31,155 nucleotides of DNA from positions 1 to 31,155 of IMG/VR virus record IMGVR_UViG_3300035494_000079; one strand, written 5' to 3'. Origin of the DNA: a virus (taxonomy: Duplodnaviria > Caudoviricetes). Positions 5,887 through 26,527 of the stretch are shown in pieces (the stretch's first letter is position 1; the number at the start of each line of letters is the position of its first letter). The notes beneath the pieces are model-generated. The model saw only the letters and a list, made by a program, of their open reading frames with translations. It was not told the DNA's origin and ran no database searches. The translations under genes and the position numbers were made by a program.

Positions 5887-6672
5887 TTAAAAACGACCGT
5901 CGTCACTTTCCGCATGAACGCCTTCCTCAACAGGTTCAGACACTTGAACCTCACCAGCAAGAACTTGTTTTGAGAACTCTTTGGCTTTGTTGTAGATCTC
6001 TCCATCAACAACAGGTTCAACAAGTTCAATGTTGATTCCCCACCAAGAGCCTTTTGAATTTTCTTCCTTGACGCCAGTTAACTTGTAAATGTGTGAAAAA
6101 CTAGGCGGCGTGAACGTCTTGCCTTCAGGCGTGCGCATTTCAACACCTTGAATCAAAGACATCCAACGCTTAGATTTCTTGATTTGCGTGCTGCTCAATG
6201 AAAGCAAAGCAGGTTGCCAAGAACCGTTGGCCGCATAAACAAGCACGAAGTGATTGCGCGTGTCTTTGAGTTGATCGCCTTCAATCAGCAATTGTCCATC
6301 GTCTGTTTTTTGCAGACCTTGCAGCTTACCAGTTTCAACTTCAATCGGTGAATAATCACCCTTGAATCCGCCGCCAGCTTCGCGTGGAGCCCATCGCAAG
6401 AATCGACGTTGATAAGCACAAGGAACAACATAACATTCCTTGAACAATTCATTGGTGATCGTGTTGATCATCAATCCTGGTTTTGCTCCATCAACTTCTT
6501 CAACCTGCGGAGACAATCCCTGCAGCATAGTCAAGAATGGAATCGCAAAGGAATCTTTGTCAGCCCCTTCAAGACCCATTCCGGCGTCTGCCATCATGTC
6601 CGTCATCATCGCTGCTGGAAGACCAACTTTTGTTTCTTCAGTTTTTGCTACTTCTTTTTTCGCTGTTGCCAT
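5887..6672 (-). CDS. Conserved phage replication-module protein, putative ssDNA-binding protein
   Basis: ADAGMGLE..IPFL.MLQ.LSPQ N-terminus, aromatic beta-rich core and an acidic tail ending in F (ESDDGRF), typical of phage SSBs. Start ATG 6672 by RBS. Confidence 0.6.
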   Translation of the reverse strand: MATAKKEVAKTEETKVGLPAAMMTDMMADAGMGLEGADKDSFAIPFLTMLQGLSPQVEEVDGAKPGLMINTITNELFKECYVVPCAYQRRFLRWAPREAGGGFKGDYSPIEVETGKLQGLQKTDDGQLLIEGDQLKDTRNHFVLVYAANGSWQPALLSLSSTQIKKSKRWMSLIQGVEMRTPEGKTFTPPSFSHIYKLTGVKEENSKGSWWGINIELVEPVVDGEIYNKAKEFSKQVLAGEVQVSEPVEEGVHAESDDGRF

Positions 6673-6687
6673 GATAATAATCTCCAA

Positions 6688-7188
6688 TTACTTGATTTTT
6701 GCCGTCCAAACAGGACGAGCACCAAAAAGGTCTAATGGAACGTTTGTTCCAGATGAAATTTGTTCTTTGAGGAACGCCTTGAGAGTTTGAGGGTGAACTG
6801 ATTCGTCGAACTTCGCTGTCAGCCCTCGTTGTTGCAATTCTTGGAAAAAATCCAAAGCGGCTTGCTTTTCACCTTTTCCATATTGCGCTGTTACACCAAC
6901 TTTGATCAAGCCTCCGAAGCCGTGCTCATCCAACCAACGGAATGCAGCGTCTTTGTCGCCATTGGCGATCGAGGCGTAAACTTCTTGTTGAATTGTAATT
7001 TTTTGGCCTGTTGAAAGTTCAAGCTTGTCAATTCCAAGCTCTTGCATAGCAGACGGGATTGTTTCTTCACGCAAAATACGCGCAGCCTCCTTGGAAGCCT
7101 TTAGTGCATTTTCAGCGTGCTTGACAGCTTCGTCTGCATCAATCAACGCTCTCGAGAGAGCGGCCATTTCATCGAGTGTGATACTCAT
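6688..7188 (-). CDS. Conserved phage hypothetical protein (coiled-coil N-terminus, VHPQTLKAF motif)
   Basis: Strong RBS AGAAAGGAG; motif pattern seen in phage replication modules; function unknown. Confidence 0.75.
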   Translation of the reverse strand: MSITLDEMAALSRALIDADEAVKHAENALKASKEAARILREETIPSAMQELGIDKLELSTGQKITIQQEVYASIANGDKDAAFRWLDEHGFGGLIKVGVTAQYGKGEKQAALDFFQELQQRGLTAKFDESVHPQTLKAFLKEQISSGTNVPLDLFGARPVWTAKIK

Positions 7189-7190
7189 AC

Positions 7191-7207
7191 TTTCTCCTTT
7201 CTAAGTT
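7191..7207 (-). repeat. 17-nt leader/RBS repeat AACTTAGAAAGGAGAAA, copy 1
   Basis: Exact copies at 7191-7207 (-), 7716-7732 (+) and 9107-9123 (+). Confidence 0.85.
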
Positions 7208-7208
7208 T

Positions 7209-7547
7209 TCAGACAGCAACATGACTAGGCATGTATCGCCCGACGTTTTTGTCCCACTTGAGAACGGTGAACTTGCCGTGCAATTTACCAAGAATCGCAC
7301 AGGCCACCGCAATCACAGCAGGGTCTCCCATGGCTACCAAGCTGTCTCCAGCTTCGTAATCATAATCTTTTAATTTGTCTTTGAGTTGCTTGACCAAATC
7401 CGCAGTAGCATAAAACGCTGCGCGCGGAGGCATCATCACCACGACTTCTCCATGTTCAGAAGCAGGAGCAACATTAACTGTGGGCACAAAAGAGCTTGTC
7501 TCTCGATCGCGGCGGTGCGGGATCTGGGTGATATATACTTTTTTCAT
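7209..7547 (-). CDS. Hypothetical protein, first gene of the leftward operon
   Basis: 112-aa alpha/beta ORF with AGAAAGGAG RBS and an upstream promoter. Confidence 0.75.
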   Translation of the reverse strand: MKKVYITQIPHRRDRETSSFVPTVNVAPASEHGEVVVMMPPRAAFYATADLVKQLKDKLKDYDYEAGDSLVAMGDPAVIAVACAILGKLHGKFTVLKWDKNVGRYMPSHVAV

Positions 7548-7705: not shown

Positions 7706-7715
7706 ACAATTTGTG

Positions 7716-7732
7716 AACTTAGAAAGGAGAAA
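7716..7732 (+). repeat. 17-nt leader/RBS repeat AACTTAGAAAGGAGAAA, copy 2
   Basis: Exact match to the other two copies. Confidence 0.85.
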
Positions 7733-7735
7733 ATG

Positions 7736-8623
7736 ATGAAAATTTTTGGAGCCGGATTGGCAGGCTTGCTTGCTGGTTGTCACTTTCAACGCGCTACTAT
7801 TTTAGAAGCAGGGAAAGAAGACGTTGAGAACCACAAAGCCGTTTTGCGTTTCCGTAGCAGCGCAGTTGGCGACAGTGTTGGGATAGATTTCCGGAAAGTA
7901 AAAGTGCACAAAGGACTTTGGGACGGAAAAGACGTCACACCTTCAATAATGCACGCAAACCAGTATTCTATGAAAGTTATTGGGCGCTTGGCTGATCGAA
8001 GCATTTGGAATTTGGATGCGTGCGAACGTTTTATAGCGCCTGAAGATTTTATTGCTTTGTTGGCAGAACGTTGCGCAGGCCGGATAGTTTGGGAACACAA
8101 AGTTTCTCCTGAAGAGTTCGCAAATCCTGGTGAAGCAAAGATCAGCACAATCCCTTTGAAAGCCGCAGCGGCAATGCTTGGTGAGCAAGAAGCGCCTGAT
8201 TTCAACTTTGCGCCAATCACCGTGCGTCGATGGAAGATTCCTAATGCGGATGTATTCCAAACTATTTATTTCCCCTCACCAGAAACAACCCTTTACCGCG
8301 CAAGCATAACAGGGGATTTGTTGATTGCCGAATATGCAGGTGAAAGCGACGATTATGACCTGTTTGCTGCATTTGGGTTGTTTGAAAGCGACTGCACTCC
8401 TATTGAAAAGGTTGCGCAGCGTTACGGGAAAATTTCACCAGTTGAAGATGCTTGGCGCAAAAAGTTTATTTTTGACATGACAACTCAACACAATATTTAC
8501 AGCCTTGGGCGCTTTGCCACTTGGCGAAACTTGCTGCTGGATGACGTGCTGCAGGACATTTGCGTGCTCAAAAAGTTGATGAAGTCATCAAGCTATGAGC
8601 GACAAAAAATAAACTCAAAATAA
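7736..8623 (+). CDS. FAD-dependent oxidoreductase (Rossmann fold; UDP-galactopyranose-mutase/amine-oxidase-like architecture)
   Basis: N-terminal GAGLAG (GxGxxG) with acidic ILEA, and C-terminal YSLGRFATW flavin-binding motif. Alternative start 7733. Confidence 0.8.
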   Translation: MKIFGAGLAGLLAGCHFQRATILEAGKEDVENHKAVLRFRSSAVGDSVGIDFRKVKVHKGLWDGKDVTPSIMHANQYSMKVIGRLADRSIWNLDACERFIAPEDFIALLAERCAGRIVWEHKVSPEEFANPGEAKISTIPLKAAAAMLGEQEAPDFNFAPITVRRWKIPNADVFQTIYFPSPETTLYRASITGDLLIAEYAGESDDYDLFAAFGLFESDCTPIEKVAQRYGKISPVEDAWRKKFIFDMTTQHNIYSLGRFATWRNLLLDDVLQDICVLKKLMKSSSYERQKINSK

Positions 8624-8626
8624 ATG

Positions 8627-8655
8627 TTGCCTTTTGTTCTCGAATATTGGATAAT
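8627..8655 (+). promoter_or_regulatory. Sigma70-type promoter
   Basis: TTGCCT-N17-GATAAT in the intergenic gap. Confidence 0.7.
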
Positions 8656-8684
8656 ATGTTTAAAGGACTTAACAAGACCTTCAA

Positions 8685-8701
8685 AACTCAGAACTGGAGA
8701 A
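8685..8701 (+). repeat. 17-nt leader/RBS repeat AACTCAGAACTGGAGAA
   Basis: Exact copy at 17483-17499 and a one-mismatch-region copy at 11947-11962. Confidence 0.85.
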
Positions 8702-8706
8702 ATGCT

Positions 8707-9108
8707 ATGAAACCGATAAACGAAATGAGTACCGCTGAAATGCTTGCTGAACATAACGCGCTAACAGGCAAAAACACCAAAAGATTTGCAAGCCGTGCAG
8801 CAGGTGAAAAGCAACTCGCCAAAGCTAGAGAACAAAACAAAATGGTTGAACAACAAACTTTACCAGCAATTGAAGAAACAAAAGATCAACGTGCGGAAGC
8901 AATCGCGAAGTCTTGGGGCGACGCTGAAGTTGCTGCAAAACGCACGCGGCGCAATGGCGTGCTTGTTGATGGAAAAACTGAATACCGCTCAGTAAAAGCG
9001 GCGTTCATCGACCTTGGTTTGCCGCTTGGCAGCCATATCAAATTCCGAATGGATCTCAAAAAAGATAAAAATTTGGAGTTTCAAGGGCATGAATTTGCTC
9101 TAATCTAA
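8707..9108 (+). CDS. Hypothetical basic protein, possibly DNA-binding
   Basis: Start moved to ATG 8707 (MKPINEMS) by the GGAG RBS. Lys/Arg-rich; the C-terminal VLVDGKTEYRSVKAAF..LG resembles small HTH/NUMOD-type modules. Confidence 0.7.
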   Translation: MKPINEMSTAEMLAEHNALTGKNTKRFASRAAGEKQLAKAREQNKMVEQQTLPAIEETKDQRAEAIAKSWGDAEVAAKRTRRNGVLVDGKTEYRSVKAAFIDLGLPLGSHIKFRMDLKKDKNLEFQGHEFALI

Positions 9109-9123
9109 CTTAGAAAGGAGAAA
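9107..9123 (+). repeat. 17-nt leader/RBS repeat AACTTAGAAAGGAGAAA, copy 3
   Basis: Exact match; 9107-9132 matches 7716-7741 at 25 of 26 positions. Confidence 0.85.
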
Positions 9124-9126
9124 GTG

Positions 9127-9846
9127 ATGAAAGTTACACTCATCAACCATACGCAGGATGCAGACAATCTGCTCCTGTTCACAAAGGCGACACGCTTGGA
9201 GCTTAGCCCAGGATTGTTAGACGAGATCCGCAGCAAAACTCCTGAGCAAAAACTTGAAGAGCTTGAATACATGGCAAACACCATCCCAAGTTCTTGGGAA
9301 TTCGTTGATTATGTTTTCCTTGTTGAAGGGGTGAGCCGTGCTTATACGCACCAGCAGGTTCGAACTCGCGCAGCAAGTTATGCGCAGCAGACCATGCGTG
9401 TGTTGGACATGAATGAATTTGATTACATCTATCCGGAAAAAATAAAAGATTCTAAGCAAGCAACAAGCGTTGTTGACCAAGCGTTGAAAGGTATTAAATA
9501 CGCTTACGGCAGATTGCTTGAGCTTGGTTTTGCGCCGGAAGATGCCCGTGGGTTGTTGCCGACAAACATCAGCACGAATATTGTTTGCAAATTCAACTTG
9601 CGCACGTTTGTGGATTTGGCAAAGTCTCGCACAGGCGGTCGCACGCAAAGTGAATATCAAAAGGTCGTCAACGCCATGGTCGATGAGGTGCTTAAAGTTC
9701 ATCCTTGGGCAGAGAAGTTCTTGTTCAAAGAAGGCCGTGATTATTTCGCTGAAATTGAAGCGTTTGCAGAACGTGAATACGGCGGAGACCTTAAGAAAAA
9801 GGGTGAATTGTTGAAGATCGTTGACAAAATGCGCAAAGGCGGTTGA
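9127..9846 (+). CDS. thyX: Flavin-dependent thymidylate synthase (ThyX) family protein, divergent active site
   Basis: GVSRAYTHQQVRTRAASYAQQTMR (ThyX signature region), EDARGLLP and NLRTF motifs. The canonical RHR-x7-S appears as RTR-x7-T. Confidence 0.85.
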   Translation: MKVTLINHTQDADNLLLFTKATRLELSPGLLDEIRSKTPEQKLEELEYMANTIPSSWEFVDYVFLVEGVSRAYTHQQVRTRAASYAQQTMRVLDMNEFDYIYPEKIKDSKQATSVVDQALKGIKYAYGRLLELGFAPEDARGLLPTNISTNIVCKFNLRTFVDLAKSRTGGRTQSEYQKVVNAMVDEVLKVHPWAEKFLFKEGRDYFAEIEAFAEREYGGDLKKKGELLKIVDKMRKGG

Positions 9847-9847
9847 T

Positions 9848-10291
9848 ATGATTATCATCGACTTAGACAACACAATCAGCGATGATGGTTGGCGTATTGG
9901 CGAGATCGATTTGGAAACTGACGATCTGATTAAGCGTTATCACACATATCACATGCTTTGTGGTTTTGATGAGTTGCGCAACCGCGAACTTTTCGAAGAC
10001 AAAGATGATGTCTACGTATTCACAACGCGACCGCATTTTTATATGCCTATGACGGTTGAGTGGTTGCGACGCAACAAGGTGGTTGTGAAAGGGTTGTTTA
10101 TGCGCAATGGACACGAACGTTCTGTGGTTGCAAAAAAGTTGTTTTTGGAAGAACTTCTTTCAGCGACCAACAAGAGCGCCGCAGACATTGTTTGTGCTTA
10201 TGATGACCGAGAAGACGTTGTGAAAATGTACAAGGAAATGGGTGTCAATGCAAAATTGATTCAAATTAACAAGCCTTTGGGAGTTCACTGA
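9848..10291 (+). CDS. HAD-superfamily phosphatase (polynucleotide-kinase-phosphatase-like domain)
   Basis: Motif I IIDLDNT, motif II FTTR, motif III K, motif IV YDDREDVV..Y. Start at ATG 9848 right after the thyX stop. Confidence 0.82.
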   Translation: MIIIDLDNTISDDGWRIGEIDLETDDLIKRYHTYHMLCGFDELRNRELFEDKDDVYVFTTRPHFYMPMTVEWLRRNKVVVKGLFMRNGHERSVVAKKLFLEELLSATNKSAADIVCAYDDREDVVKMYKEMGVNAKLIQINKPLGVH

Positions 10292-10674
10292 TGGAAGAAG
10301 ATTATTACCACATTGATGCTGCTCACGAGTTGCACGAACAGAATCACAACTTGAAAGAGCCGATTCATCTAGGCAAGAAAAAGCAGCCGACAGCAGCCGA
10401 CATCCTTGAAGAAATGGGGAAAACTTTCCGTGAACGCAATAAAGTTTATGGGGACAATTTCCGCATGGTCGGTGCAATGATGAAGATTTTGTTTCCTGAA
10501 GGCGTTCCGCCGGAATTGTTGCACAGCGACAAGTTCCATTTGTTCGAACTTAAACTGGTGAAGATTTCTCGCTTTGCAATCAGCGGAATGACTCACCAAG
10601 ACAGCATTCATGATGATGCCGTTTACAGCGCCATGATCGAAGCAATTTTATTAGAAGAGGAAAACGCAAAATGA
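10291..10674 (+). CDS. All-alpha nucleotide-modification-associated protein (DUF6378/MazG-like, putative dNTP pyrophosphatase fold)
   Basis: IL...ERNKVYGD.F...LK..K.SR.....HQDS..D.A.Y pattern typical of this phage family. Confidence 0.65.
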   Translation: MEEDYYHIDAAHELHEQNHNLKEPIHLGKKKQPTAADILEEMGKTFRERNKVYGDNFRMVGAMMKILFPEGVPPELLHSDKFHLFELKLVKISRFAISGMTHQDSIHDDAVYSAMIEAILLEEENAK

Positions 10675-11357
10675 ATATTTTAATCACAGGCCATCTGCAC
10701 GGCCTAGGCGCAGCAATGTTTGATGCGCTTGCTGAAGCAGGCCATCATGTAATTGGATACGACATTGAACTTGGAAAGGATGTTTTGAACCCTGACATGA
10801 AGTTCATTGAAGAAATGTTGGATGGAGAGAAGCTTGACGTGCTGATCAACAATGCTGGTGTGAATTTGATTGATTGGTTGGAAAACTTCACCGAAGATCA
10901 ATGGGACAAGGTTCTTGACACCAACGCAAAAGGAATTTACAAAATGACGCAGGCGTTATTGCCGCATCTTGTTGAAACAAAAGGAACCGTGTTGAATGTG
11001 GTTTCCAACGCGGCGCACATGCCGATGACGTGCTCATTAGCTTACAACGCTTCCAAAGGCGCTGCGCACATCATGACGTTGCAGTTGGCGCGTGAGCTTA
11101 CCAAGAAACACGGCATCACAGTTTTCGGAATCGCACCGAACAAGTTGCGCGGAACTGAAATGAGTCATTCAATCGACGATCAAGTCGTGCAAACACGCGG
11201 ATGGACAAAAGAATTTGCGCAGGAATATCAACTCAACGGCCTTTTGACCGGAGAAGAGACAGATCCTGCTGCAGTTGCAGAATTTGTGGCATTCTTGTTG
11301 CAAGACAAGGCACACCACAAGTATTTAACTGGTTGTATTTTACCTTACGGAGCTTAA
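10671..11357 (+). CDS. Short-chain dehydrogenase/reductase (SDR)
   Basis: TGHLHGLG (TGxxxGxG), NNAG, catalytic S and YNASK. Asp after beta-2 (GYDI) suggests NAD(H). Confidence 0.92.
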   Translation: MNILITGHLHGLGAAMFDALAEAGHHVIGYDIELGKDVLNPDMKFIEEMLDGEKLDVLINNAGVNLIDWLENFTEDQWDKVLDTNAKGIYKMTQALLPHLVETKGTVLNVVSNAAHMPMTCSLAYNASKGAAHIMTLQLARELTKKHGITVFGIAPNKLRGTEMSHSIDDQVVQTRGWTKEFAQEYQLNGLLTGEETDPAAVAEFVAFLLQDKAHHKYLTGCILPYGA

Positions 11358-11361
11358 TAAA

Positions 11362-11853
11362 ATGTTAAAATTTAAAATCGAACAAATTGCAATTTGCCCA
11401 AAAGACCCTTTCGCAGCACGCGAACTTCTTGAAGCCATCGGCGCTGTTGAATGGCACGAAGACCATGTTGTTGCAACTGGCGAAGTTTTTGGCGCACACG
11501 GAACCAACGAAGCTGATCTGTCTTTCAACTATGACATGTTTGGAGGCAAAGAATTCGAGTTGCTTAATTACACAGAAGGCAATGACTGGATGCAGCACGG
11601 CGGTCGTCCTAACAGCGTCAGCCACCTTGGAATGCATTGCTCAGTTGAAGAGTTGATTCTTTGGCGAGACTTTTTCGCTGAACGCGGAATTGAAGTTGCT
11701 CAAGAAGTGTTCACCGACTCGCACACCAACCCTGTCATTGCAGGAAAGCGTTCGTACAACTACGTGATTTTCGACACAAAAGACATTTTGGGCGTTGACT
11801 TGAAATTCATCGTGCGAATCAACTTGGAAGAAATCGTCACACCGAACGATTAA
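11362..11853 (+). CDS. VOC/glyoxalase-fold protein (methylmalonyl-CoA-epimerase-like)
   Basis: Paired beta-alpha-beta-beta-beta pattern: IEQIAI...EFELL...SHLGMH...FDTKDILGVDLKFI. Confidence 0.65.
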   Translation: MLKFKIEQIAICPKDPFAARELLEAIGAVEWHEDHVVATGEVFGAHGTNEADLSFNYDMFGGKEFELLNYTEGNDWMQHGGRPNSVSHLGMHCSVEELILWRDFFAERGIEVAQEVFTDSHTNPVIAGKRSYNYVIFDTKDILGVDLKFIVRINLEEIVTPND

Positions 11854-11967: not shown

Positions 11968-12519
11968 ATGAAAGCGATAATATTTGACACAGAGACAACT
12001 GGATTGCTGATGCCGTCTGTTGCAGACATCGAAAAGCAACCTAAAATAATAGAAATTGGCGCGCTTGCAGTTGATGAAAATGGTGTCGTTGGAGAACTTT
12101 CTCAACTGCTGAACCCAAACGAAATTCTAGATCCGCAAATCACAAAGATAACCGGAATCAAAGATGAAGACTTGGTTGGAAAGCCATCATTCATTGAATT
12201 CCTTCCGCAGTTGAAAGAGTTTTTTGATGGAACTGACTTTTTGATCTGTCACAATGCGCCATTCGACACAGGACTTTTGAAAAATGACCTTGTCCGTGCT
12301 GATTGCGATGACTTTCCTTGGCCTGCTGAAATAATTTGCACGGTTCAAGAATACAAGCCGCAATTCGGATACAGACCAAAATTGCTAGAGCTTTATGAAC
12401 GCATTTTAGGCCGGAAGCTTGCGCAGACACACAGAGCGTTGGACGATGTTCATGCATTGTATGAAGCAATCAAGGCTGACGGTTTTATGGACTTGTTGTT
12501 TGGTGTTGAAAATGAATAA
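11968..12519 (+). CDS. 3'-5' exonuclease, DEDDh family (Pol III epsilon/DnaQ-like)
   Basis: ExoI FDTETTG, ExoII HNAPFD, ExoIII HRALDD. Confidence 0.93.
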   Translation: MKAIIFDTETTGLLMPSVADIEKQPKIIEIGALAVDENGVVGELSQLLNPNEILDPQITKITGIKDEDLVGKPSFIEFLPQLKEFFDGTDFLICHNAPFDTGLLKNDLVRADCDDFPWPAEIICTVQEYKPQFGYRPKLLELYERILGRKLAQTHRALDDVHALYEAIKADGFMDLLFGVENE

Positions 12520-12763
12520 GCAATTCACATGCAACTGCAACGCTTATAAGTTTCCGCACCGCTTTGGTTCCGGGAAATGCACTGGAGCGTTCATAGCACA
12601 GGAAACTTGGGAAAGAAATTACGGAGGAGGGATTTGCTCTTCTTGCAATTCATTCAACGAGCAAGAGCGCCGTTGTGAAGTCGTTGACGGTCAAGAAAGC
12701 ATCAAAGAGTGCGAAGCTTGGCAAGAATTCGTTGAATTCAATGAAATAAAGGTGTACAATTGA
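12512..12763 (+). CDS. Small Cys/His-rich (zinc-binding) hypothetical protein
   Basis: From ATG 12512: CNC..Y.FPHR..SGKC...CSSC...C...EC; overlaps both neighbours. Confidence 0.65.
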   Translation: MNKQFTCNCNAYKFPHRFGSGKCTGAFIAQETWERNYGGGICSSCNSFNEQERRCEVVDGQESIKECEAWQEFVEFNEIKVYN

Positions 12764-15528
12764 TGATACAACTCAGAATAAGAACGGAATATAGCTTTGG
12801 GGAAACGTTCGCCCCAATAAACCGCGTCATTGAACGCTTGAAGGAAATTGGTTGCAAGGCAGCTGGGATTGTTGACGGATCCACTTGGGGACACGTCGCA
12901 TGGTTCAAGGCTTGTACGGCGGCTGGGATTCAACCGATTCTAGGCGTTGAGTGCGTTGTTAGCGACGACGAGTCAACTCCAAAAATGTGGTTCCTGGCCA
13001 AAAATAAAGCAGGCTTAAGCGAACTTTACAATTTCACCAGCAAGAGCCACCAACAAACAATTCCAACCAAGCGCGGCTCTCTACCTAGGCTTTACCGCAA
13101 TGACGTTTTGAATATGAGCGACAACATATTCAAGTTTGCTGGAGAAGTAACAGACGGAAGTTTCCTAGCAGACGTTGGTGCTTATATTGATTTGAACCCT
13201 GCCAGCAGAATACTCAATGCACGCAAAAAGAATATAGCAAAGCAACAAGGGTTGAAGTTGGTTGAAACTTCAGACAATGCTTATGCATTCGAGGAAGACG
13301 TTGAAACGTTCGAGTTGGCTTCCAAAGCAGGAACAAAAGCAACCGCGCAGCACATCTTAGATGAGCTTGATTTTTTGGAAACGTCTCAGGAAATTGCTGA
13401 CCAATGCATTGGTCTTGAAATGCCTGTTGCACCAATGATCCACCAAGAAGGGAATTTGGAAGAGATTTGTCGTGAAGGGATAAAGTTCAGAGGCATGGAG
13501 GAAAGTTGGACGAAGGAATATGAAGAACGGCTTCTTTATGAATTGGACTTGATAAAGCTCAAGGATTATGAAAGTTACTTCATCGTCGTTGCAGATATGG
13601 TGCATTATGCCAAAAAACACATGCTTGTTGGTCCAAGCCGTGGGTCTGCAGCAGGCTCTTTGGTTTGTTATCTTGCGCGGATTACAGAAATTGATCCGAT
13701 TCCACCAAAACTTTACTTTGAACGTTTCATTGACGTAAGCCGTACAGACTTGCCTGATATTGACCTGGACTTCCCAGACAATAAGCGCCAGATGGTTTTC
13801 GATTATATGGCAGACAAATATGGGTTCAACAACGTTGCGCACATTGGAACAATCGGTCAGTTCCGGCCTAAATCTGCACTAATACAAGTGTGCAAAGCAT
13901 TGAACATCCCTCCGCAAGCAACAGGCGCGGTAAAGGTCGCAATGATCGAGCGCTCTTCAGCGGATTCACGCGCCAACAACTGCCTTGAAGACACATTCAA
14001 GGAAACAAATCCTGGTCGAGATTTCATCAAACAATACCCACAAGCAATGAGTGCAATGCGGTTGGAAGGACACGCAACGCACACAGGCGTACACGCTGCA
14101 GGATTGCTGGTTTGTAATGACGAAATAACGAATTACGCAACAGTTGACGCCAACGGAATTGCTCACATCGAAAAGGGAGCTGCAGAGTCTCTTGGGTTGT
14201 TGAAAATCGACGTTTTGGGGTTGCGCACGCTTGGCGTTTTGGAAGACAGCGGAGTTGACATAGACTGGTACAATCTGCCGTTCAACGACGAATTAACTTT
14301 CAATGTATTCAATGAAGGACGGATGTGTGGCATCTTTCAGTTTGAAGGAAACGCCTTGCGTGCAATTAGCAGAGACATTCACTTTGACAACATCATTGAA
14401 ATTGATGCTGTGACCGCACTGGCGCGTCCTGGACCATTCGCAGGCGGCGTTACTGAAAAATACGTTGACCGAAAAAATGGTGAACCTTATGAGCCAATTC
14501 ACCCTCTTGTTGAAGGGTTCATGAAGGAGACGTTTGGTTTGCCGGTTTACCAAGAGCAGACACTCGCCATCGTGCGTGAAATCGGAAAATTCGACTGGGC
14601 AGAGACTTCCACGATCCGTAAAGCAATGTCCAAGCGCATGGGTAAAGAATTTTTCAACACCTATTGGGAAAAATTCAGAGCAGGCGCAGAAAGCCAAGGA
14701 ATCAATGAACAAGAAGCGCGTCAGACGTGGGAGACAATCAACGCGATGGGTGCTTGGCAGATGAACAAGGCGCACACGTACAGTTATGCTGTAATTAGCT
14801 ATTGGACGGCTTATCTGAAAGCACACCACCCTTTGGAATTTGCTGCAGCAAACCTGCGCAACGCAAAAGACGACGACAGTGCAATTGAATTATTGCGTGA
14901 AATGGTGCGTGAAGGCGTTGAATACGTTCCGTTCGACTTGGAAAAATCAGAAAAGAATTGGTGTGTAAAAGACGGCAAGTTGTACGGCGGATTTATGGCG
15001 CTGAAAGGATTCGGACACAAAAAGGCCGAAAAATTCATTGAAGCACGCAACAACGGATCTCTAACCAAAAAGAATATTGAAGACATTGAAAAAGCTCACA
15101 ACACATTCGCAGACATTTTCCCATTCAATGAGCATTATGGACACCTTTACCAAGACCCAGCAAGCAACGGCATTGCAAGCGCAGTCGTTGAAATAAAAGA
15201 TCTTGAAAATATTCCGCACCAAGAGGAGCGCGTTTTCCTCGGTGAATTGGTTTACAAAAACGCGCGAAACTACAATGAAGAAGTTAACGTCAAAAAACGC
15301 GGCGGAAAATTAGGAACTGGTCCATTGGAATTCGTCGATGTGCGATTAAGAGACGACTCCGGAACCATTGGTGGAAGAATCGGCCGATACGACTTTGAGC
15401 GCATTGGACGTGAATTGCTTGAACGCACGCCAGTTGGTTCTCACCTTATGGTGCGGGCGAAATTCTTCAACAACATTCGATATGCATTCATAACAAAATG
15501 GAGACGATTAGATGGCGGAGAACAATGA
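12763..15528 (+). CDS. dnaE: DNA polymerase III alpha subunit-like (family C) phage polymerase
   Basis: PHP-like N-terminus (RTEYS, PILGVE), GPSRGSAAGS, FERF, catalytic PDIDLDF, HAAG, KIDVLGL, GIFQFE, RPGP, YQEQ, NKAH..SY. Confidence 0.95.
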   Translation: MIQLRIRTEYSFGETFAPINRVIERLKEIGCKAAGIVDGSTWGHVAWFKACTAAGIQPILGVECVVSDDESTPKMWFLAKNKAGLSELYNFTSKSHQQTIPTKRGSLPRLYRNDVLNMSDNIFKFAGEVTDGSFLADVGAYIDLNPASRILNARKKNIAKQQGLKLVETSDNAYAFEEDVETFELASKAGTKATAQHILDELDFLETSQEIADQCIGLEMPVAPMIHQEGNLEEICREGIKFRGMEESWTKEYEERLLYELDLIKLKDYESYFIVVADMVHYAKKHMLVGPSRGSAAGSLVCYLARITEIDPIPPKLYFERFIDVSRTDLPDIDLDFPDNKRQMVFDYMADKYGFNNVAHIGTIGQFRPKSALIQVCKALNIPPQATGAVKVAMIERSSADSRANNCLEDTFKETNPGRDFIKQYPQAMSAMRLEGHATHTGVHAAGLLVCNDEITNYATVDANGIAHIEKGAAESLGLLKIDVLGLRTLGVLEDSGVDIDWYNLPFNDELTFNVFNEGRMCGIFQFEGNALRAISRDIHFDNIIEIDAVTALARPGPFAGGVTEKYVDRKNGEPYEPIHPLVEGFMKETFGLPVYQEQTLAIVREIGKFDWAETSTIRKAMSKRMGKEFFNTYWEKFRAGAESQGINEQEARQTWETINAMGAWQMNKAHTYSYAVISYWTAYLKAHHPLEFAAANLRNAKDDDSAIELLREMVREGVEYVPFDLEKSEKNWCVKDGKLYGGFMALKGFGHKKAEKFIEARNNGSLTKKNIEDIEKAHNTFADIFPFNEHYGHLYQDPASNGIASAVVEIKDLENIPHQEERVFLGELVYKNARNYNEEVNVKKRGGKLGTGPLEFVDVRLRDDSGTIGGRIGRYDFERIGRELLERTPVGSHLMVRAKFFNNIRYAFITKWRRLDGGEQ

Positions 15529-15964
15529 CTACAAGGTGTTGAAAAAGAATCTTCCGCAAGGCAAAGACCGTCTTGACAGGATAGAAAATGTTGTTGTTGC
15601 TGGAATGCCGGACATCAACTTTTGCTGCGAAGGTGTTGAGTGTTGGTTAGAACAAAAATCGCCAAAAGAACCCAAGCGTAGCACGACGAGGCTTTTCGGA
15701 TCCAACCACAAATTGTCGCAAGACCAGATGAATTGGTTCAAGCGTCAAATGGATGCCGAAGGCAATGCTTACATATTAATAGCTTCCGACAAGCGTTGGA
15801 TGCTGATCAGCGGTGAGCATGCCGATGTCGTCAACGAATTAACAGTTGAACAACTGCTTGAAATTTCACTTTGGAACACAAACAAGCCAGTCAGGGATAA
15901 AGAATCATGGAAACAATTACGCCAAATACTAAATTCAAAACACAACCTTACAAGCACCAATTAG
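15512..15964 (+). CDS. PD-(D/E)xK nuclease (VRR-NUC / Holliday-junction-resolvase-like)
   Basis: RIEN...GMPD.....WLEQK and LS..Q..W motifs; directly upstream of an SNF2 helicase. Confidence 0.8.
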   Translation: MAENNDYKVLKKNLPQGKDRLDRIENVVVAGMPDINFCCEGVECWLEQKSPKEPKRSTTRLFGSNHKLSQDQMNWFKRQMDAEGNAYILIASDKRWMLISGEHADVVNELTVEQLLEISLWNTNKPVRDKESWKQLRQILNSKHNLTSTN

Positions 15965-17804: not shown

Positions 17805-18004
17805 AAGAAATTGCAAAAACTGGAAGCGTTATTTTAGGCTTTTTGATTTTGTTCGCTGTTGTTGGGTCGATGGACGCAGTTGACGCTCAGGCAAGTTCAG
17901 AAAATTATTGCGCAATGGTTGAACTTTGGGAGCAAGACTCTCACCTTGCTCCTGAACAACGACGCGGTTGGCCTCCGTATAAAGGAGTTGAAAAATGTCA
18001 ATAA
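17801..18004 (+). CDS. Hypothetical membrane-anchored protein
   Basis: N-terminal hydrophobic segment VILGFLILFAVVG; GGAG RBS; YC.MV..W..GWP.Y pattern. Confidence 0.7.
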   Translation: MKEIAKTGSVILGFLILFAVVGSMDAVDAQASSENYCAMVELWEQDSHLAPEQRRGWPPYKGVEKCQ

Positions 18005-18330
18005 CAACAATCGACCACCACATCTGCGGCATCCCGTGCAAAATTGAAGTGACTTATTTTCATCACCAAGAACCTTGGCGCGGATCGGCGCACAACTGTC
18101 CTAGCGCAGACGATTATTACGGCTTCACGGAAATTGAATACAACGTTCTTGATCGCAAAGGTTATGCGGCTGATTGGCTTGCAAGAAAAATAACATCTGA
18201 AATTGACTCAGAGATTCGCGACGCGATTTTTGAACAGACGATACAAGATGCAGAACCGGATGAAGAAAAAATAGCCGAAATTTTCACCAAGCTCGGCTAT
18301 TGGAATTACACCAACGGTCTTGATCAATGA
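17995..18330 (+). CDS. Hypothetical protein
   Basis: AAGGAG RBS; GIPC.I.V and VLDRKGY.A.WL.RK patterns; ends convergent with the endolysin gene. Confidence 0.72.
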   Translation: MSITTIDHHICGIPCKIEVTYFHHQEPWRGSAHNCPSADDYYGFTEIEYNVLDRKGYAADWLARKITSEIDSEIRDAIFEQTIQDAEPDEEKIAEIFTKLGYWNYTNGLDQ

Positions 18331-19678: not shown

Positions 19679-21628
19679 TTATGGATATTCCATTCTTGAT
19701 ACTTCAATCCATGAAGACAGATTGCCGTCATACTTTAATGTCAAACTATCATAAACTCTATCAAGTGTGAAATCTAAAGCGCCAGACAGACGAATATTAC
19801 CTTTGGCATTCTTAACGACAACATCCCTAGCATCGTTGTTTGCTCTAATATGTAATATCTGCCCATCAACTCCACCGTTTATAGTAACAAGGTCATCAGT
19901 AGCCGCAGAAGCTTCTGTGTCAATTGTACAGTTTGATTGTGAAACTGTGATTACACCAGCTGAAATAGTTAGTGATTCCTTCTTATACACTTCTTTAACA
20001 GTGTTAGTAGTTACATTAGTAAATACCTGTTCAAGAGTAGTTATCTTCTGGAACCTTCCATCATTTACTAGGTTGTAGTATAACCCAATAATCACACCTC
20101 GCTTACCATTCAAGTCGTAAGATGGGTTCTCCGAATTTGGAGTGAAGCTTGAATAAATGAATGTATCTTGTGCATGCTCAAGGAAAATATCCGTAATTCC
20201 AGTATTAAGAGCACCACCATTTCGAATGACATTTGCAATAGTATTAGATTCAGATTCGTAACCAGAGTTGGCTTTAAAGTAAACTAGGTGATTCGTGTAT
20301 AAAGCATTATCCCAGAAAGATTGATTTTCAATAGTATTTGCTTTTGCATTCTCAAGAAGTAAACCACCACCAGCACAAACTTCATAGTTAATGTTTGAGA
20401 ACTTATTGTTTACGAGATATGTAGTTAAGTCAGTATTTTTCAAAGCAAAAAATTGAACGGTGCTTGCATTGTAAACTCGTAGATTTCTAAAATGATTCTC
20501 ATTACATCTAGTACCATTAACTGTAATGTCAACACCGCTGACAGTTGAACCATTTGCAAGATACCAGTCCCCGCCCTCAAAAATAGAGTCATAAATTCCA
20601 GATGTAGGATTCAGTGAATAGATAAGTGACTTGCTTGTTGACTGTACATACATATCGACATTATCAACTTTTAGCCCAGTTACACCATATTTGATATTAA
20701 GCACATGACCTGATTCAGAGCGTAATTCACAATTTTGGATTAGTGAATTCTTGAGAACTTGCGTGGTAGATACATCAAATACATCCTTACCAGTGCCGTT
20801 CACGTATAGCTTTGACGTGTTACCTGTACCAATGACAGAGATACCTTGAGTATAAATACCTGTGTCTAAAGTAAACGTGTCAGAAGATAACAACTTACCG
20901 TCTTCTAATCTGATAAAACCAATGCTTGTACTGATACAGAAATCAATGTATTTCTGCATCGGAATAAAATTATCTGTACCGGTAGCATTTACCCCGGTCA
21001 GACCATTCCAATCACACTTGACACCAAAATCTGACGGGTATCGAGGTTTAATCTGTTTAACCCAACAACCTGTACCAGTTCCAGCAGTAAACCAAGTAGT
21101 AAGTTGAGTTTGGTTAGTCCAATCTGTAGGGAATGGTCTATCAGGGTCAATGATTGTCCCTCCATTGTGGTTTGCCTTGTCTTGAGTAGCATCCCAATAG
21201 AAGTTATCCCCACCACCTTCTACGTCTGAGTGGTAGTTGAGGACAGTGATTGCTTGTTTATCTGAATTTCCGCTGCCGTATTCAACCAAATCAGCAATAG
21301 AATTTAGTGAAAACGTTCCGCTTGCTTCTAACTTTGACGCTTGCAACGACGACTGCACCAAAGACCCGTTTTTGTTCTTAACAACCATTGAGAATTTCGC
21401 TTCAACGATGTAAATATTTGTTGGCGTGCCGTTTCTGCTTACATAACCGTTAATAGTGCGCAATGGTTGCGCAGCTGGAATCGTCAACGCTTCATCGAAG
21501 TAAACTTGGATCGGATTGCTTTCCGCGTCCAACCCTGACTCACCAATATACACATAACCTGCATCGAGAGGGTCGCCGTCTACGTCGTGCAAAAGCACAT
21601 AAGGTTGAATTATTCTGTAAGATGACAT
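19679..21628 (-). CDS. Tailspike / receptor-binding protein with P22-type head-binding domain and beta-helix body
   Basis: N-terminal G.PL..GYVYIG..G.D...NPI.VY.D..AQPLRT..GY head-binding motif; DFGVK.D..TDN then Asn/Ile-rich parallel beta-helix repeats. Confidence 0.85.
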   Translation of the reverse strand: MSSYRIIQPYVLLHDVDGDPLDAGYVYIGESGLDAESNPIQVYFDEALTIPAAQPLRTINGYVSRNGTPTNIYIVEAKFSMVVKNKNGSLVQSSLQASKLEASGTFSLNSIADLVEYGSGNSDKQAITVLNYHSDVEGGGDNFYWDATQDKANHNGGTIIDPDRPFPTDWTNQTQLTTWFTAGTGTGCWVKQIKPRYPSDFGVKCDWNGLTGVNATGTDNFIPMQKYIDFCISTSIGFIRLEDGKLLSSDTFTLDTGIYTQGISVIGTGNTSKLYVNGTGKDVFDVSTTQVLKNSLIQNCELRSESGHVLNIKYGVTGLKVDNVDMYVQSTSKSLIYSLNPTSGIYDSIFEGGDWYLANGSTVSGVDITVNGTRCNENHFRNLRVYNASTVQFFALKNTDLTTYLVNNKFSNINYEVCAGGGLLLENAKANTIENQSFWDNALYTNHLVYFKANSGYESESNTIANVIRNGGALNTGITDIFLEHAQDTFIYSSFTPNSENPSYDLNGKRGVIIGLYYNLVNDGRFQKITTLEQVFTNVTTNTVKEVYKKESLTISAGVITVSQSNCTIDTEASAATDDLVTINGGVDGQILHIRANNDARDVVVKNAKGNIRLSGALDFTLDRVYDSLTLKYDGNLSSWIEVSRMEYP

Positions 21629-24976: not shown

Positions 24977-25620
24977 CAGAACATCCCCAATAATTTCATT
25001 GTTCCAAGTTGTGAAGTCGTGCTTCCGATGTTGCCCCACATCTGCGCTTGTGCTGCACCAGAAGTTAGCGCTGCTTGCGCTTGCGCTTGACCAGCTTGCG
25101 ACAATAAGTTTCCGATATTAGTTGCGGATTGCATTCCCTGAACAGATTGTCCGGCGGCAGACGCTTGACCAATTTGCCCCAATCCAGCGAGTTTTGAATA
25201 TTGACTTTCGATTGCTTGCTGCAACATCTGTGGGCGGTATTGCGCCAAAGCAGACTGAATATTGCCGCCACGCAGGCCGCCGGTTGCTGAAGCTTGTTGC
25301 AACATCGCTTCTTCACCTTGACGAACTTGCGCTTGGAACAGTGGGCTTTGCTCGATGGCTGAAATTGCAGCTTGTTGCTCCTCTGGCGTGCCTAGACCTG
25401 CTAATGCGCTCATTTGTGTCATCGCAGGCTCACCAACTGCTACATATGGAGCAAGCGTTTCTTTCATTATGTCGAATTGGCGGCGTTGTTCGGCGATTGA
25501 AGCCTCTGATGCTGCGGTTTGCGCTCCGGCAGCCGTTTCTGCAGCTGCTTGTTGAGCATTAGAACTCATAACACCTGATATTACGGCACCGCCAACGACC
25601 GCTGTTGCTATTCCTGACAT
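24976..25620 (-). CDS. DNA transfer protein (P22 gp7-like)
   Basis: Gly/Ala-rich N-terminus, LAPY...G, ASATGGLRGGN...ALAQ motif. Confidence 0.8.
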   Translation of the reverse strand: MSGIATAVVGGAVISGVMSSNAQQAAAETAAGAQTAASEASIAEQRRQFDIMKETLAPYVAVGEPAMTQMSALAGLGTPEEQQAAISAIEQSPLFQAQVRQGEEAMLQQASATGGLRGGNIQSALAQYRPQMLQQAIESQYSKLAGLGQIGQASAAGQSVQGMQSATNIGNLLSQAGQAQAQAALTSGAAQAQMWGNIGSTTSQLGTMKLLGMF

Positions 25621-26474
25621 TGTTCAACTCCTTGGATTCCAGACAATTCCAGAGCTTGTCTGTAATCGACGGTTAATTCTTCACCTTTGCTTCCGCCGAC
25701 ACAACCTTGAATGTCTCTATTCGCAACAAGGTAAATGTCTTCGTTTTCAGTTTTCACAAAGACGCAATTTGGATTTTTAGAATGGTTTGTGAATCTTCCG
25801 GCAGGCGTGCGCTTTCCGTTGATGCGTGCAGGAGCTATTACGCTTCCTGCTTCAACAGGCCAACTCAAAAATAAGCCTTTGCCTTCAATTTCAGAGTCTC
25901 GCACGGATGTTGCCGCGTTCCATGGGGAAGGCATTTCAATTTGGTCGAACTCATTTTGGGATTGCGCGCGAACTGTGTCTTCATCAAAGCCATATTGTGC
26001 GATGGCGCTAAGATAATCGTCTCTGTCTTCTTGGCGCAAGGCGCAATTCAATTCTTCAACTTGTTCATTGAACTCGCACCAAGTTTCGCTTTTGTCAAGG
26101 AACATCTCTTCAAGCTTGTCGATGTCGGTTTCTTCAGTTGCGTAAATGTTTTGCCAAACACAAGTCTCAATAACATATCCGACCTTGCGTCCGGGCTTGC
26201 CAACAAAAATCATCGGCGCTTGCAACACCTTGACTTTTCCGTCATCGATGATCGCGACTTTTCCTGTTAGCATGACATTTAGGTGTTCGAAGCGTTGCGC
26301 GTGGCCGACAGCCAATGCGCCTTGCGGAAGCGTCACCTCTCGAACATAAATTCCTGGTCCAAAATGGTGAGCCACAGGACAATCGATCTGCGGAAGGTTA
26401 AGCATATGAGCTTCAATTTGCTCGACACCTTCATTTTTTGCGATTGCTGTTGGTTTTGAAATTGACAATTCCAC
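25608..26474 (-). CDS. Cupin-like domain plus SET-domain (lysine methyltransferase) fusion protein
   Basis: N-terminal HHFGPGIYVRE...G..VGH.....H cupin-like barrel. C-terminal SET motifs SEIEGKGLF, GRFTNHSKNPN, GEELTVDY. Likely GTG start at 26474 after GGAG (track start 26486). Confidence 0.85.
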   Translation of the reverse strand: MELSISKPTAIAKNEGVEQIEAHMLNLPQIDCPVAHHFGPGIYVREVTLPQGALAVGHAQRFEHLNVMLTGKVAIIDDGKVKVLQAPMIFVGKPGRKVGYVIETCVWQNIYATEETDIDKLEEMFLDKSETWCEFNEQVEELNCALRQEDRDDYLSAIAQYGFDEDTVRAQSQNEFDQIEMPSPWNAATSVRDSEIEGKGLFLSWPVEAGSVIAPARINGKRTPAGRFTNHSKNPNCVFVKTENEDIYLVANRDIQGCVGGSKGEELTVDYRQALELSGIQGVEQCQE

Positions 26475-26527
26475 CGATCTCTCCAAAATAAAGCTGCCGG
26501 AAGCTCATATTTACTCGGCTTGCGTTT

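Follow-up and report, generated by a model that had tools for sequence, protein, structure and literature searches.

Related DNA modifications in described phages

Sugar-bearing thymidines have been reported from the DNA of two Pbunaviruses, with a mass of 362 Da in phage F8 and 390 Da in phage 14-1 (Yee et al., 2025, PMC12191111). That report calls these bases thymidine derivatives, places the F8 modification at about a quarter of T in a TG-specific manner and, in the text examined, makes no mention of free hmdU; we found no gene assignment for either modification in the literature searched, that text included. Bacillus phage SP-15 carries a C5-linked sugar-like chain, as 5-(4,5-dihydroxypentyl)uracil made before replication (PMC5977210), a finding now 50 years old. 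In hmdU-based hypermodification (M6, ViI, PaMx11) and 5-hydroxycytosine arabinosylation (RB69, DLP3), a repurposed thymidylate synthase is accompanied by interchangeable tailoring enzymes near the replication genes, and in PaMx11 a flavoenzyme, gp47, acts on modified DNA (PMC8989533).

Here we analyzed a stretch of 31,155 nucleotides (the window) that makes up positions 1 to 31,155 of the IMG/VR virus record IMGVR_UViG_3300035494_000079, from an uncultured phage (Duplodnaviria; Caudoviricetes). F8 and 14-1 share with this phage, in the same order, orthologs of a flavoprotein (42%), a ThyX variant (38–39%), a HAD-DUF6378 fusion, an exonuclease and DnaE. They differ from it in lacking the SDR and VOC genes, while the window phage has separate HAD and DUF6378 genes and a P22-like virion module. 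The likeness to SP-15 lies in the type of base, in two ThyX-fold genes and in an SDR (gp129) directly before a divergent ThyX (gp130). However, SP-15 has no detectable flavoprotein homolog, gives only a weak 39-aa VOC match (E 0.014) and uses PolA, not DnaE. Its gp130 matches the window ThyX clade at only 7.7% and falls outside it. SP-15 was rejected as a true homolog on these grounds and is treated as an analogy. The hmdU and arabinosylation systems differ in using ThyA-fold enzymes with an hmU kinase, aGPT-Pplase or glycosyltransferase. No match to a glycosyltransferase, TET, aGPT-Pplase, dNMP kinase or ThyA family was found among the 37 ORFs of the window, which is an incomplete genome, or among the 62 of 91 F8 proteins scanned.

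Gene content and layout of the block

The block lies entirely on the + strand. It opens with a core gene for an orphan flavoprotein of 296 aa (7733..8623; phrog_4828, E 7e-82) with UDP-galactopyranose mutase-like motifs, followed by orf153 (8647..9108, likely start 8707), which matches phrog_4730 but no enzyme. Three further core genes encode the ThyX variant (9124..9846), a PNKP/LNS2-like HAD phosphatase (9848..10291, longest ORF from 9821; phrog_415, E 3e-18) and a DUF6378-like four-helix domain (10291..10674; phrog_4889, E 4e-24; PF19905, 18.8 bits, below the cut-off of 27.1). Two optional genes, a classical SDR with a putative tailoring role (10671..11357; PF00106, 118.9 bits) and a glyoxalase/epimerase-like VOC protein (11362..11853), complete the cassette. 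Downstream are a DnaQ-type 3'-5' exonuclease (11968..12519; PF00929, 96 bits), a 114-aa ORF and a C-family DNA polymerase, DnaE, of 922 aa (12760..15528; PF07733, PF17657 and PF02811; phrog_405).

The original prediction of six co-oriented enzyme genes was borne out for all six, but it missed a seventh co-oriented ORF, orf153, in the interval between flavoprotein and ThyX. Tight coupling, also predicted, was found from ThyX to VOC, where successive genes are separated by a gap of 1 (HAD start 9848), overlap by 1 and 4, and are separated by a gap of 4. The family labels held for ThyX and SDR, both above Pfam cut-offs. HAD and DUF6378 scored below cut-off, and flavoprotein and VOC, without a Pfam or NCBIfam match, owe their labels to motifs and the ESM Atlas. 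Predicted promoters and terminators were at chance level (15 vs 14.3 and 16 vs 13.8).

Conservation of the cassette across phages

A single flavoprotein sequence recovered no locus in a viral scan, while a flavoprotein alignment used as query did. The flavoprotein family is represented in 362 GenBank phage records, 292 of them Pseudomonas, and forms 1090 clusters at 50% identity. The core of flavoprotein, ThyX, HAD and DUF6378 was complete in all 54 viral loci that ran from flavoprotein to exonuclease, 26 of which also carried SDR and VOC, and in 51/51 loci with 6 kb of downstream sequence; orf153 accompanied the cassette, at varying positions, in 45 of these 51. The SDR gene was directly upstream of VOC in all 42 VOC-bearing loci, and VOC was never seen without SDR among the loci examined. 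Wifcevirus Bas98 and Carpasinavirus XcP1, which represent a Wifcevirus/Carpasinavirus/Myosmar-type block, match the block in both gene content and order (VOC 54–60% and SDR 48–51% identical), but are myoviruses of 62–72 kb. Given this shared order and the 42/42 SDR-VOC pairing, the arrangement is far beyond chance. The cassette thus keeps its gene order across many phages that are unrelated, and the co-occurrence with DnaE that a gene-neighbourhood survey was expected to reveal is present. Long flavoprotein ORFs at three loci (L072, L119, L128) were rejected as fusions, being upstream open-frame artefacts.

Tailoring genes vary. Genes for a carbamoyltransferase, methyltransferase, radical SAM protein, class II aldolase or Nmad5 are inserted in cassettes elsewhere. 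After deduplication, a methyl- or carbamoyltransferase was present in 8/20 SDR-less but 0/21 SDR-bearing loci (Fisher p 0.0013), although SDR and methyltransferase occur together in Cluster D and Gordonia actinophages, which counts against strict exclusion. The commonest insertions are DenV-like UV-repair glycosylases (26 and 18 loci). These, together with the fact that SDR and VOC proteins commonly detoxify carbonyls, would fit a product that acts elsewhere than in DNA, be it a modified nucleotide or a cofactor, for instance a small molecule that blocks defences or a product of repair. We regard such a role as very improbable, given the fixed position beside exonuclease and DnaE, the hydroxyl-tailoring transferases within the cassette and the modified T reported in core carriers (PMC12191111).

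A ThyX clade with altered folate-site residues

The window ThyX exceeds both the Pfam cut-off (PF02511, 121.3 bits against 24.8) and that of the NCBIfam thyX equivalog (TIGR02170, 96.6 against 87.9). In ThyX, His53 stacks the folate, Ser88 and Tyr91 are critical, and formaldehyde can be used via a flavin carbinolamine (PMC11940539). Aligned with T. maritima ThyX, the window protein shows His53 replaced by Ile, RHR by RTR, Ser88 by Thr and Tyr91 by Val (Ile54, Thr90 and Val93 in its own numbering for the His53, Ser88 and Tyr91 sites). These changes run through the clade, with Ile or Val at the His53 position and Thr or Ser at His79, the middle of RHR, each in 88/89 sequences, and Tyr91 gone in all but one; the Ser88 position holds Thr, Ser or Ala. 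The exception at His53/Tyr91 comes from a genome (G001) whose second ThyX is of a more conventional kind; this is the only locus with two. Corynebacterium ThyX naturally has Phe at the Tyr91 position. In contrast to the replaced sites, equivalents of Q75, R78, R80, R90, R147 and R174 are retained; clade-wide, Q77, R80, R92, R142 and R169 are present in 89/89 sequences and R82 in 88/89. Of the retained residues, we take Gln75, Arg147 and Arg174 to bind dUMP and flavin. The altered ThyX of the original prediction is thereby confirmed, in that the carbon-donor residues His53 and Tyr91 are replaced and the dUMP/flavin residues kept. K21 and R24, considered as new sugar-phosphate ligands, were rejected, since T. 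maritima has R25 and R28 at the aligned positions.

The equivalog score, the intact dUMP and flavin residues and the absence of ThyA from 5/5 genomes checked would also suit a normal dTMP synthase whose neighbours clean the pool, the Pbunavirus modification then coming from other, unrecognised genes; many F8 proteins are indeed without a family. We consider this improbable. His53 and Tyr91 are lost clade-wide, G001 has a second ThyX, and flavoprotein, HAD and DUF6378, superfluous for dTMP synthesis, stand alongside in 54/54 loci. Furthermore, beyond replication and structural genes, the overlap between F8 and the 40-kb phage PY059YO380 is limited to the cassette, orf153 and two Pam3-like genes.

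A weak, possible resemblance of the flavoprotein to UDP-galactopyranose mutase

UDP-galactopyranose mutase (UGM) forms a flavin-N5 sugar iminium (PMC7662398) and has a conserved Arg327. The GxGxxG, YFP...YR and GRF-x-W-R motifs of fungal and trypanosome UGM are collinear in the flavoprotein, at a non-significant E of 0.2–0.26; in the same comparison a ribosomal protein reached E 0.099. UGM Tyr317 and Arg327 align with Y179 and R189 (numbers counted by hand from the alignment), which, like G259, are kept in 147/147 sequences. The flavoprotein is shorter (296 aa against 367–510 aa), the comparison with E. coli UGM gave a probability of 5%, and a Pfam scan of 70 members returned zero matches, GLF included. 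Its structure model is confident (pLDDT 96.4). A PDB sequence search with the first flavoprotein alignment returned nothing meaningful. Co-folding of two ThyX copies with the flavoprotein scored 0.00, which carries no evidential weight.

HAD, DUF6378, SDR and VOC proteins

The HAD phosphatase has Pfam scores just under cut-off, and its DxD, T/S, K and DD motifs are intact and conserved in 93 sequences. It is fused to DUF6378 in Lindbergviridae-type phages. The DUF6378-like protein, all-alpha in its model, is a candidate dNMP kinase or pyrophosphohydrolase. In phage Ss1 its place, fused to HAD, is taken by DUF3310, the family of T7 gp1.7, which, going by its RefSeq label, we take to be a nucleotide kinase. 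Direct DUF6378-DUF3310 homology was dropped, as hhalign, run against an alignment of two sequences, gave a probability of 0.1%, lower than shuffled controls; the link is the positional replacement in Ss1. A PDB sequence search with the DUF6378 alignment found nothing meaningful, and none of the 5 genomes has a thymidylate kinase.

The SDR has the TGxxxGLG, NNAG, Ser112 and Y125xxxK129 motifs, present in 93% or more of the 65 sequences compared. VOC resembles Glyoxalase_4 clusters in the ESM Atlas (0.93, 182 shared features) and gave zero matches in Pfam, PHROG, NCBIfam and PDB. Its conserved residues are Q8, E64, E66, H88 and K148, the last replacing the final acid of the metal site, which we mapped onto methylmalonyl-CoA epimerase by assumption. 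The actinophage proteins Adjutor gp63 and LuckyLeo gp71 were rejected as VOC.

Modified thymidine in carriers of the core

In F8 and 14-1 the core stands without SDR or VOC, and yet their DNA is modified (PMC12191111). SDR and VOC are therefore not needed to build the chain and are optional genes, contrary to the proposal that they build it. Searches of the literature found no virion DNA analysis of the window phage or of any SDR+VOC phage. The F8 and 14-1 flavoproteins are 97% and the ThyX proteins 94% identical although the bases differ, so something else must set the difference.

A mass of 362 Da matches 5-(tetrahydroxypentyl)-dU exactly, in line with the predicted polyhydroxyalkyl-uracil, but an O-linked isomer has the identical mass; both 362 and 390 Da fit C-linked structures and O-linked hmdU isomers equally. 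In the F8 genome 27.2% of T precede G, in agreement with the reported quarter. By our computation, with 25% of T substituted at random, 56% of FspI or ApaLI sites could still be cut. Placement at nearly all TG sites is hard to reach by incorporation from the pool. The original prediction of a C5 carbon-carbon linkage made at pool level is thus not supported as written, because of the isomer of equal mass and because TG placement suggests a possible DNA-level step.

The same cassette could then finish its product on DNA. ThyX would provide a starting group, for instance hmdU, to which the flavoprotein, basic and mutase-like, would attach a sugar at TG steps as a flavin-dependent transferase. 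The result, an O-linked pentoside (390) or tetritol ether (362), would then be tailored by SDR and VOC. The TG context and its share, nine flavoprotein Arg/Lys residues conserved in at least 140/147 sequences, the lack of a conventional dNMP kinase (thymidylate kinase in 0/5 genomes) and the precedent of PaMx11 gp47 point this way. We nevertheless find it rather unlikely. Non-TG sites would need reduction back to T, as the examined text of PMC12191111 does not mention free hmdU; matches to hmU kinase and glycosyltransferase are missing from the scanned F8 proteins; HAD and DUF6378/DUF3310 resemble pool enzymes; and, up to an E of 0.001, the flavoprotein profile matched no PDB entry that would link it to gp47.

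Proposed pathway and implications

Taken together, the cassette probably makes a sugar-modified thymine, a putative function under which a sugar-bearing thymidine analogue would be placed in phage DNA by the phage's own DnaE, blocking restriction nucleases. That it does so at pool level by a carbon-carbon route, with ThyX joining a sugar carbon to uracil C5, is a fair way short of assured, at somewhat less than an even chance. In this route the mutase-like flavoprotein may draw on a host NDP-sugar, either activating it as a sugar adduct at flavin N5 or remodelling it into a donor. The ThyX variant, in which the folate-holding His53/Tyr91 are gone but the dUMP site is kept, would place sugar C1 rather than a methylene on C5 of dUMP; a pentose plus hydride would give 362 Da and a hexose with ring closure 390 Da. 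HAD may strip a side-chain phosphate or trim pools. The swap with a T7 gp1.7-family domain suggests that DUF6378 phosphorylates the bulky dNMP. Side-chain hydroxyls would be edited by SDR and VOC, or by a methyl- or carbamoyltransferase in other phages, so that the base of the window phage would differ from those of F8 and 14-1. DnaE and the exonuclease would incorporate the modified nucleotide beside normal T.

More speculatively, and doubtfully, two flavin-N5 enzymes may work in relay. A mutase-derived protein would open the NDP-sugar on its flavin, a folate-independent ThyX would weld sugar C1 to uracil C5, and a gp1.7-like helical kinase would feed DnaE. C-glycosyl or alditol-yl uracil nucleotides would arise without a glycosyltransferase, and SDR+VOC, methyl-, carbamoyl- and radical-SAM genes would swap across about a thousand flavoprotein clusters, giving a large family of DNA bases, possibly with the SP-15 base made by analogous chemistry.

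Wifceviruses bearing the full cassette are resistant to the RM systems tested, apart from EcoP1_I, and neither a known means of protection nor a mechanism is reported (PMC11990801); the supplements of that study yielded no EcoP1_I or EcoCFT_II recognition site. From the spread of the cassette, so far unrecognised modified DNA would be expected in Wifcevirus, Carpasinavirus, some Rhizobium jumbo phages and marine and freshwater phages and, more distantly, in cluster D-type actinophages. Wifcevirus sensitivity may reflect a recognition site without TG, an idea not used as evidence here. If ThyX transfers a sugar carbon, this would be a new flavin chemistry and would open an enzymatic way to C5-functionalised nucleotides, along with a polymerase able to use them. 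For Pbunaviruses, which rank with the most widely used therapeutic Pseudomonas phages, the cassette supplies four candidate core genes for the modified thymine; it would also indicate the bacterial defences (RM systems, END nucleases) that cassette phages encounter.

Organization of the gene block and its surroundings

The window, part of a phage genome, encodes a P22-like virion module on its minus strand; its replication genes occupy the plus strand. Positions 7733-11853 hold seven co-oriented ORFs (a flavoprotein assigned to phrog_4828, a 153-aa ORF, ThyX, HAD, a DUF6378-like protein, SDR and a VOC-like protein), tightly coupled from ThyX to VOC and followed in order by a DnaQ exonuclease, a 114-aa ORF, DnaE and an SNF2 helicase. 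The original prediction of six small-molecule enzymes forming a base-modification block upstream of DnaE described the arrangement correctly, with the addition of one extra ORF; neither the flavoprotein nor the VOC label found support in Pfam or NCBIfam. The 153-aa ORF (orf153, phrog_4730; 8647-9108, plus strand) had no enzyme match. It lies beside the cassette, inside or upstream, in 45 of 51 loci and is also present in the Pbunaviruses F8 and 14-1. An identical leader, AACTTAGAAAGGAGAAA, precedes the start codons of the flavoprotein and ThyX genes (7712-7732 and 9103-9123, plus strand).

Divergently oriented to the cassette is a trio of genes resembling Pam3 gp32-34 (5887-7547, minus strand). 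The replication module closes with a gene similar to YuA gp49 (17995-18330, plus strand). The minus strand also encodes a tailspike/depolymerase-like protein (19679-21628), a BclA_C-like minor tail protein (26909-28114) and a 292-aa virion-module protein (25608-26486) whose N-terminus resembles a short tail fibre (phrog_12032) and is joined to a SET domain that exceeds its Pfam threshold (37.2 > 22.4 bits). A SET methyltransferase fold is unusual within a phage structural operon.

Distribution of the cassette

Among 50,697 GenBank phage records, the flavoprotein matched 362 (292 from Pseudomonas), ThyX 510 and VOC 55. The full set, ordered as in the window, was found in Wifcevirus Bas98 and Carpasinavirus XcP1, and the core (flavoprotein, ThyX, HAD and DUF6378) without SDR and VOC in F8, 14-1 and Ralstonia phage PY059YO380. 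The flavoprotein family comprises 1090 clusters at 50% identity. When viral contigs were scanned using an alignment of the flavoprotein, 158 loci were confirmed, the best 80 of which were analyzed; 54 spanned flavoprotein to exonuclease, and the other 26 were too short or lacked this span. ThyX, HAD and DUF6378 were each present in 54/54 spanning loci from these best 80, with SDR plus VOC in 26, SDR alone in 4 and neither in 24. A second cut, taking 6 kb downstream in 51 of the best 80 loci, recovered the core in 51/51 and never VOC without SDR. SDR was directly upstream of VOC in all 42 VOC loci found, many of them near-copies. Well-supported branches of a quick ThyX tree (70 rows) force at least six gains or losses of SDR and VOC, which are therefore an optional unit of the cassette.

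A distant version, with a homologous oxidoreductase, phosphatase, SDR, DnaE and a His-less ThyX, occurs in the actinophages Adjutor, LuckyLeo and RikSengupta; among these, VOC and DUF6378 were detected in RikSengupta only. Their oxidoreductase matched the flavoprotein profile with a probability of 93% (E 5e-8) in global mode and 70% in local mode, and a shallower flavoprotein alignment with 31%.

Conserved and altered residues in the ThyX variant and flavoprotein

In ThyX, His53 stacks the folate and Ser88 and Tyr91 are critical, and formaldehyde can be used via a flavin carbinolamine (PMC11940539). Aligned with Thermotoga maritima ThyX, the variant carries His53->Ile, His79->Thr, Ser88->Thr and Tyr91->Val and keeps Q75, R78, R80, R90, R147 and R174 (T. 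maritima numbering). Across 89 sequences, counted with SP-15 and actinophage rows excluded, position 53 was Ile or Val in 88 and Tyr91 was kept in one. The sole exception is the second, more conventional ThyX of a complete 49-kb phage genome (G001), which also encodes the variant (the two genes lie at L091:9340-9948 and 14840-15616). With Q75 and the arginines retained, the acceptor site seems preserved, and the changes at His53, Ser88 and Tyr91 suggest an altered donor site. Arguing against an altered role, the variant scores above the thyX equivalog threshold, Phe occupies position 91 in Corynebacterium ThyX, and ThyA was found in 0/5 genomes.

For the flavoprotein, whose predicted model had a pLDDT of 96.4, a 147-sequence profile gave as best enzyme matches in the PDB the UDP-galactopyranose mutases (UGMs) of Aspergillus and Trypanosoma. 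These matches were weak (E 0.2-0.26), and a ribosomal protein scored better (E 0.099), but the UGM alignment contained three collinear motifs. In this weak match, invariant Y179 and R189 line up with UGM Tyr317 and Arg327, the latter a conserved residue (PMC4192007) that contributes to the flavin-sugar adduct (PMC7662398). The Atlas placed the protein near amine-oxidase/NAD_binding_8 flavoproteins (0.92, with few shared features). At nine positions an Arg/Lys residue is conserved in at least 140/147 sequences, a pattern compatible with binding of a nucleotide-sugar or DNA.

Partner and tailoring genes

SDR and HAD retain their catalytic motifs, and VOC resembles Glyoxalase_4 clusters in the ESM Atlas. 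One SDR-only locus (L098) has a class II aldolase/epimerase gene ahead of SDR, a single hint that VOC may be involved in sugar-phosphate chemistry. DUF6378 is predicted to form four helices. Cronobacter phage Ss1 has, following ThyX, a HAD whose fusion partner is instead DUF3310 (36.8 bits); T7 gp1.7, which carries a nucleotide-kinase annotation, belongs to this family. Direct homology between DUF6378 and DUF3310 was undetected. As thymidylate kinase was found in 0/5 genomes, DUF6378 may act as the missing kinase.

Hypermodification clusters typically have swappable tailoring enzymes (PMC8989533). In other phages the cassette includes a carbamoyltransferase (4 loci), a methyltransferase (6 viral loci and 2 actinophages), an FkbM methyltransferase (1), radical SAM proteins (2), a 2OG-Fe oxygenase (1) and Nmad5 (2). 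A carbamoyltransferase requires a hydroxyl. With near-duplicates removed, methyl- or carbamoyltransferases occurred in 8/20 SDR-less and 0/21 SDR-bearing loci (p 0.0013, kinship ignored); the two actinophages, with both SDR and methyltransferase, are the exception to this exclusion. The tailoring slot also holds 260-280-aa proteins of GT-A-like appearance (a strand, then DD) in three loci (L126:8431-9267, L127 and L086:13067-13855), which had no Pfam or PHROG match. Between ThyX and HAD, the most frequent insertions are two families of DenV-like pyrimidine-dimer glycosylases (26 and 18 loci; for example L043:3157-3645, L070:10369-10731 and relatives).

Proposed link to a measured thymidine modification

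F8 and 14-1 contain thymidine derivatives of 362 and 390 Da, respectively, which replace about 1/4 of T and whose TG context was deduced from ten restriction enzymes; the authors read them as tetrose sugar-alcohol and cyclic aldopentose derivatives, and the accessible portions of the article name no genes (Yee et al., PMC12191111). In F8, G follows 27.2% of T, which would imply modification of almost every TG site. A Pfam scan covering 62 of its 91 proteins (the non-structural and hypothetical ones) gave no match to glycosyltransferase, TET, aGPT-Pplase or kinase families. Replication and structural genes aside, what F8 has in common with the complete 40.6-kb PY059YO380 is limited to the cassette, orf153 and a pair of Pam3-like genes. 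Wifceviruses, which have no known protection, withstand every tested RM system apart from EcoP1_I (PMC11990801). A search of literature outside subscription journals and bioRxiv supplements returned no gene assignment for the pathway, although the F8 study may since have been updated, and the accessible part of PMC13307970 adds nothing further on cassette genes.

By mass calculation, 362 Da fits 5-(tetrahydroxypentyl)-dU and also an hmdU-tetritol ether, and 390 Da fits C-hexosyl-dU and also an hmdU-pentoside. We tentatively favor, at somewhat below even chances, a carbon-linked route in which a sugar carbon would be joined to the base in the nucleotide pool, before incorporation into DNA, because, if the weak UGM match holds, both core flavoproteins belong to families whose reactions run through a flavin-N5 iminium, the donor site of ThyX appears remodelled, the partner proteins resemble pool enzymes, no glycosyltransferase was seen, and SP-15 offers a precedent. 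In SP-15, the pentyl chain is made before replication and an SDR lies beside a divergent ThyX (PMC5977210), although the likeness to the cassette is one of analogy only. Completion of the modification on DNA is somewhat less likely than this route, but would account better for the TG context, since random 25% substitution leaves 56% of two-T sites cuttable. Neither the DNA-level nor the pool route explains the difference between the F8 and 14-1 bases, as their core enzymes are 94-97% identical. The arabinosyl-hydroxycytosine pathway, which uses ThyA-fold enzymes and glycosyltransferases (PMC13326640), is a different system.

SP-15 genes 127-135 (L014:13730-21106) cluster a deoxyribosyltransferase, SDR, divergent ThyX, kinase-like gp134 and HAD. 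As a candidate for DHPU synthesis, this cluster is preferable to the hmU-synthase role guessed for gp130 (PMC5977210).

The cassette is real and widespread, and no better candidate emerged for the orphan DNA modification already published. The window phage, which has the SDR and VOC form, is predicted to make a further base.
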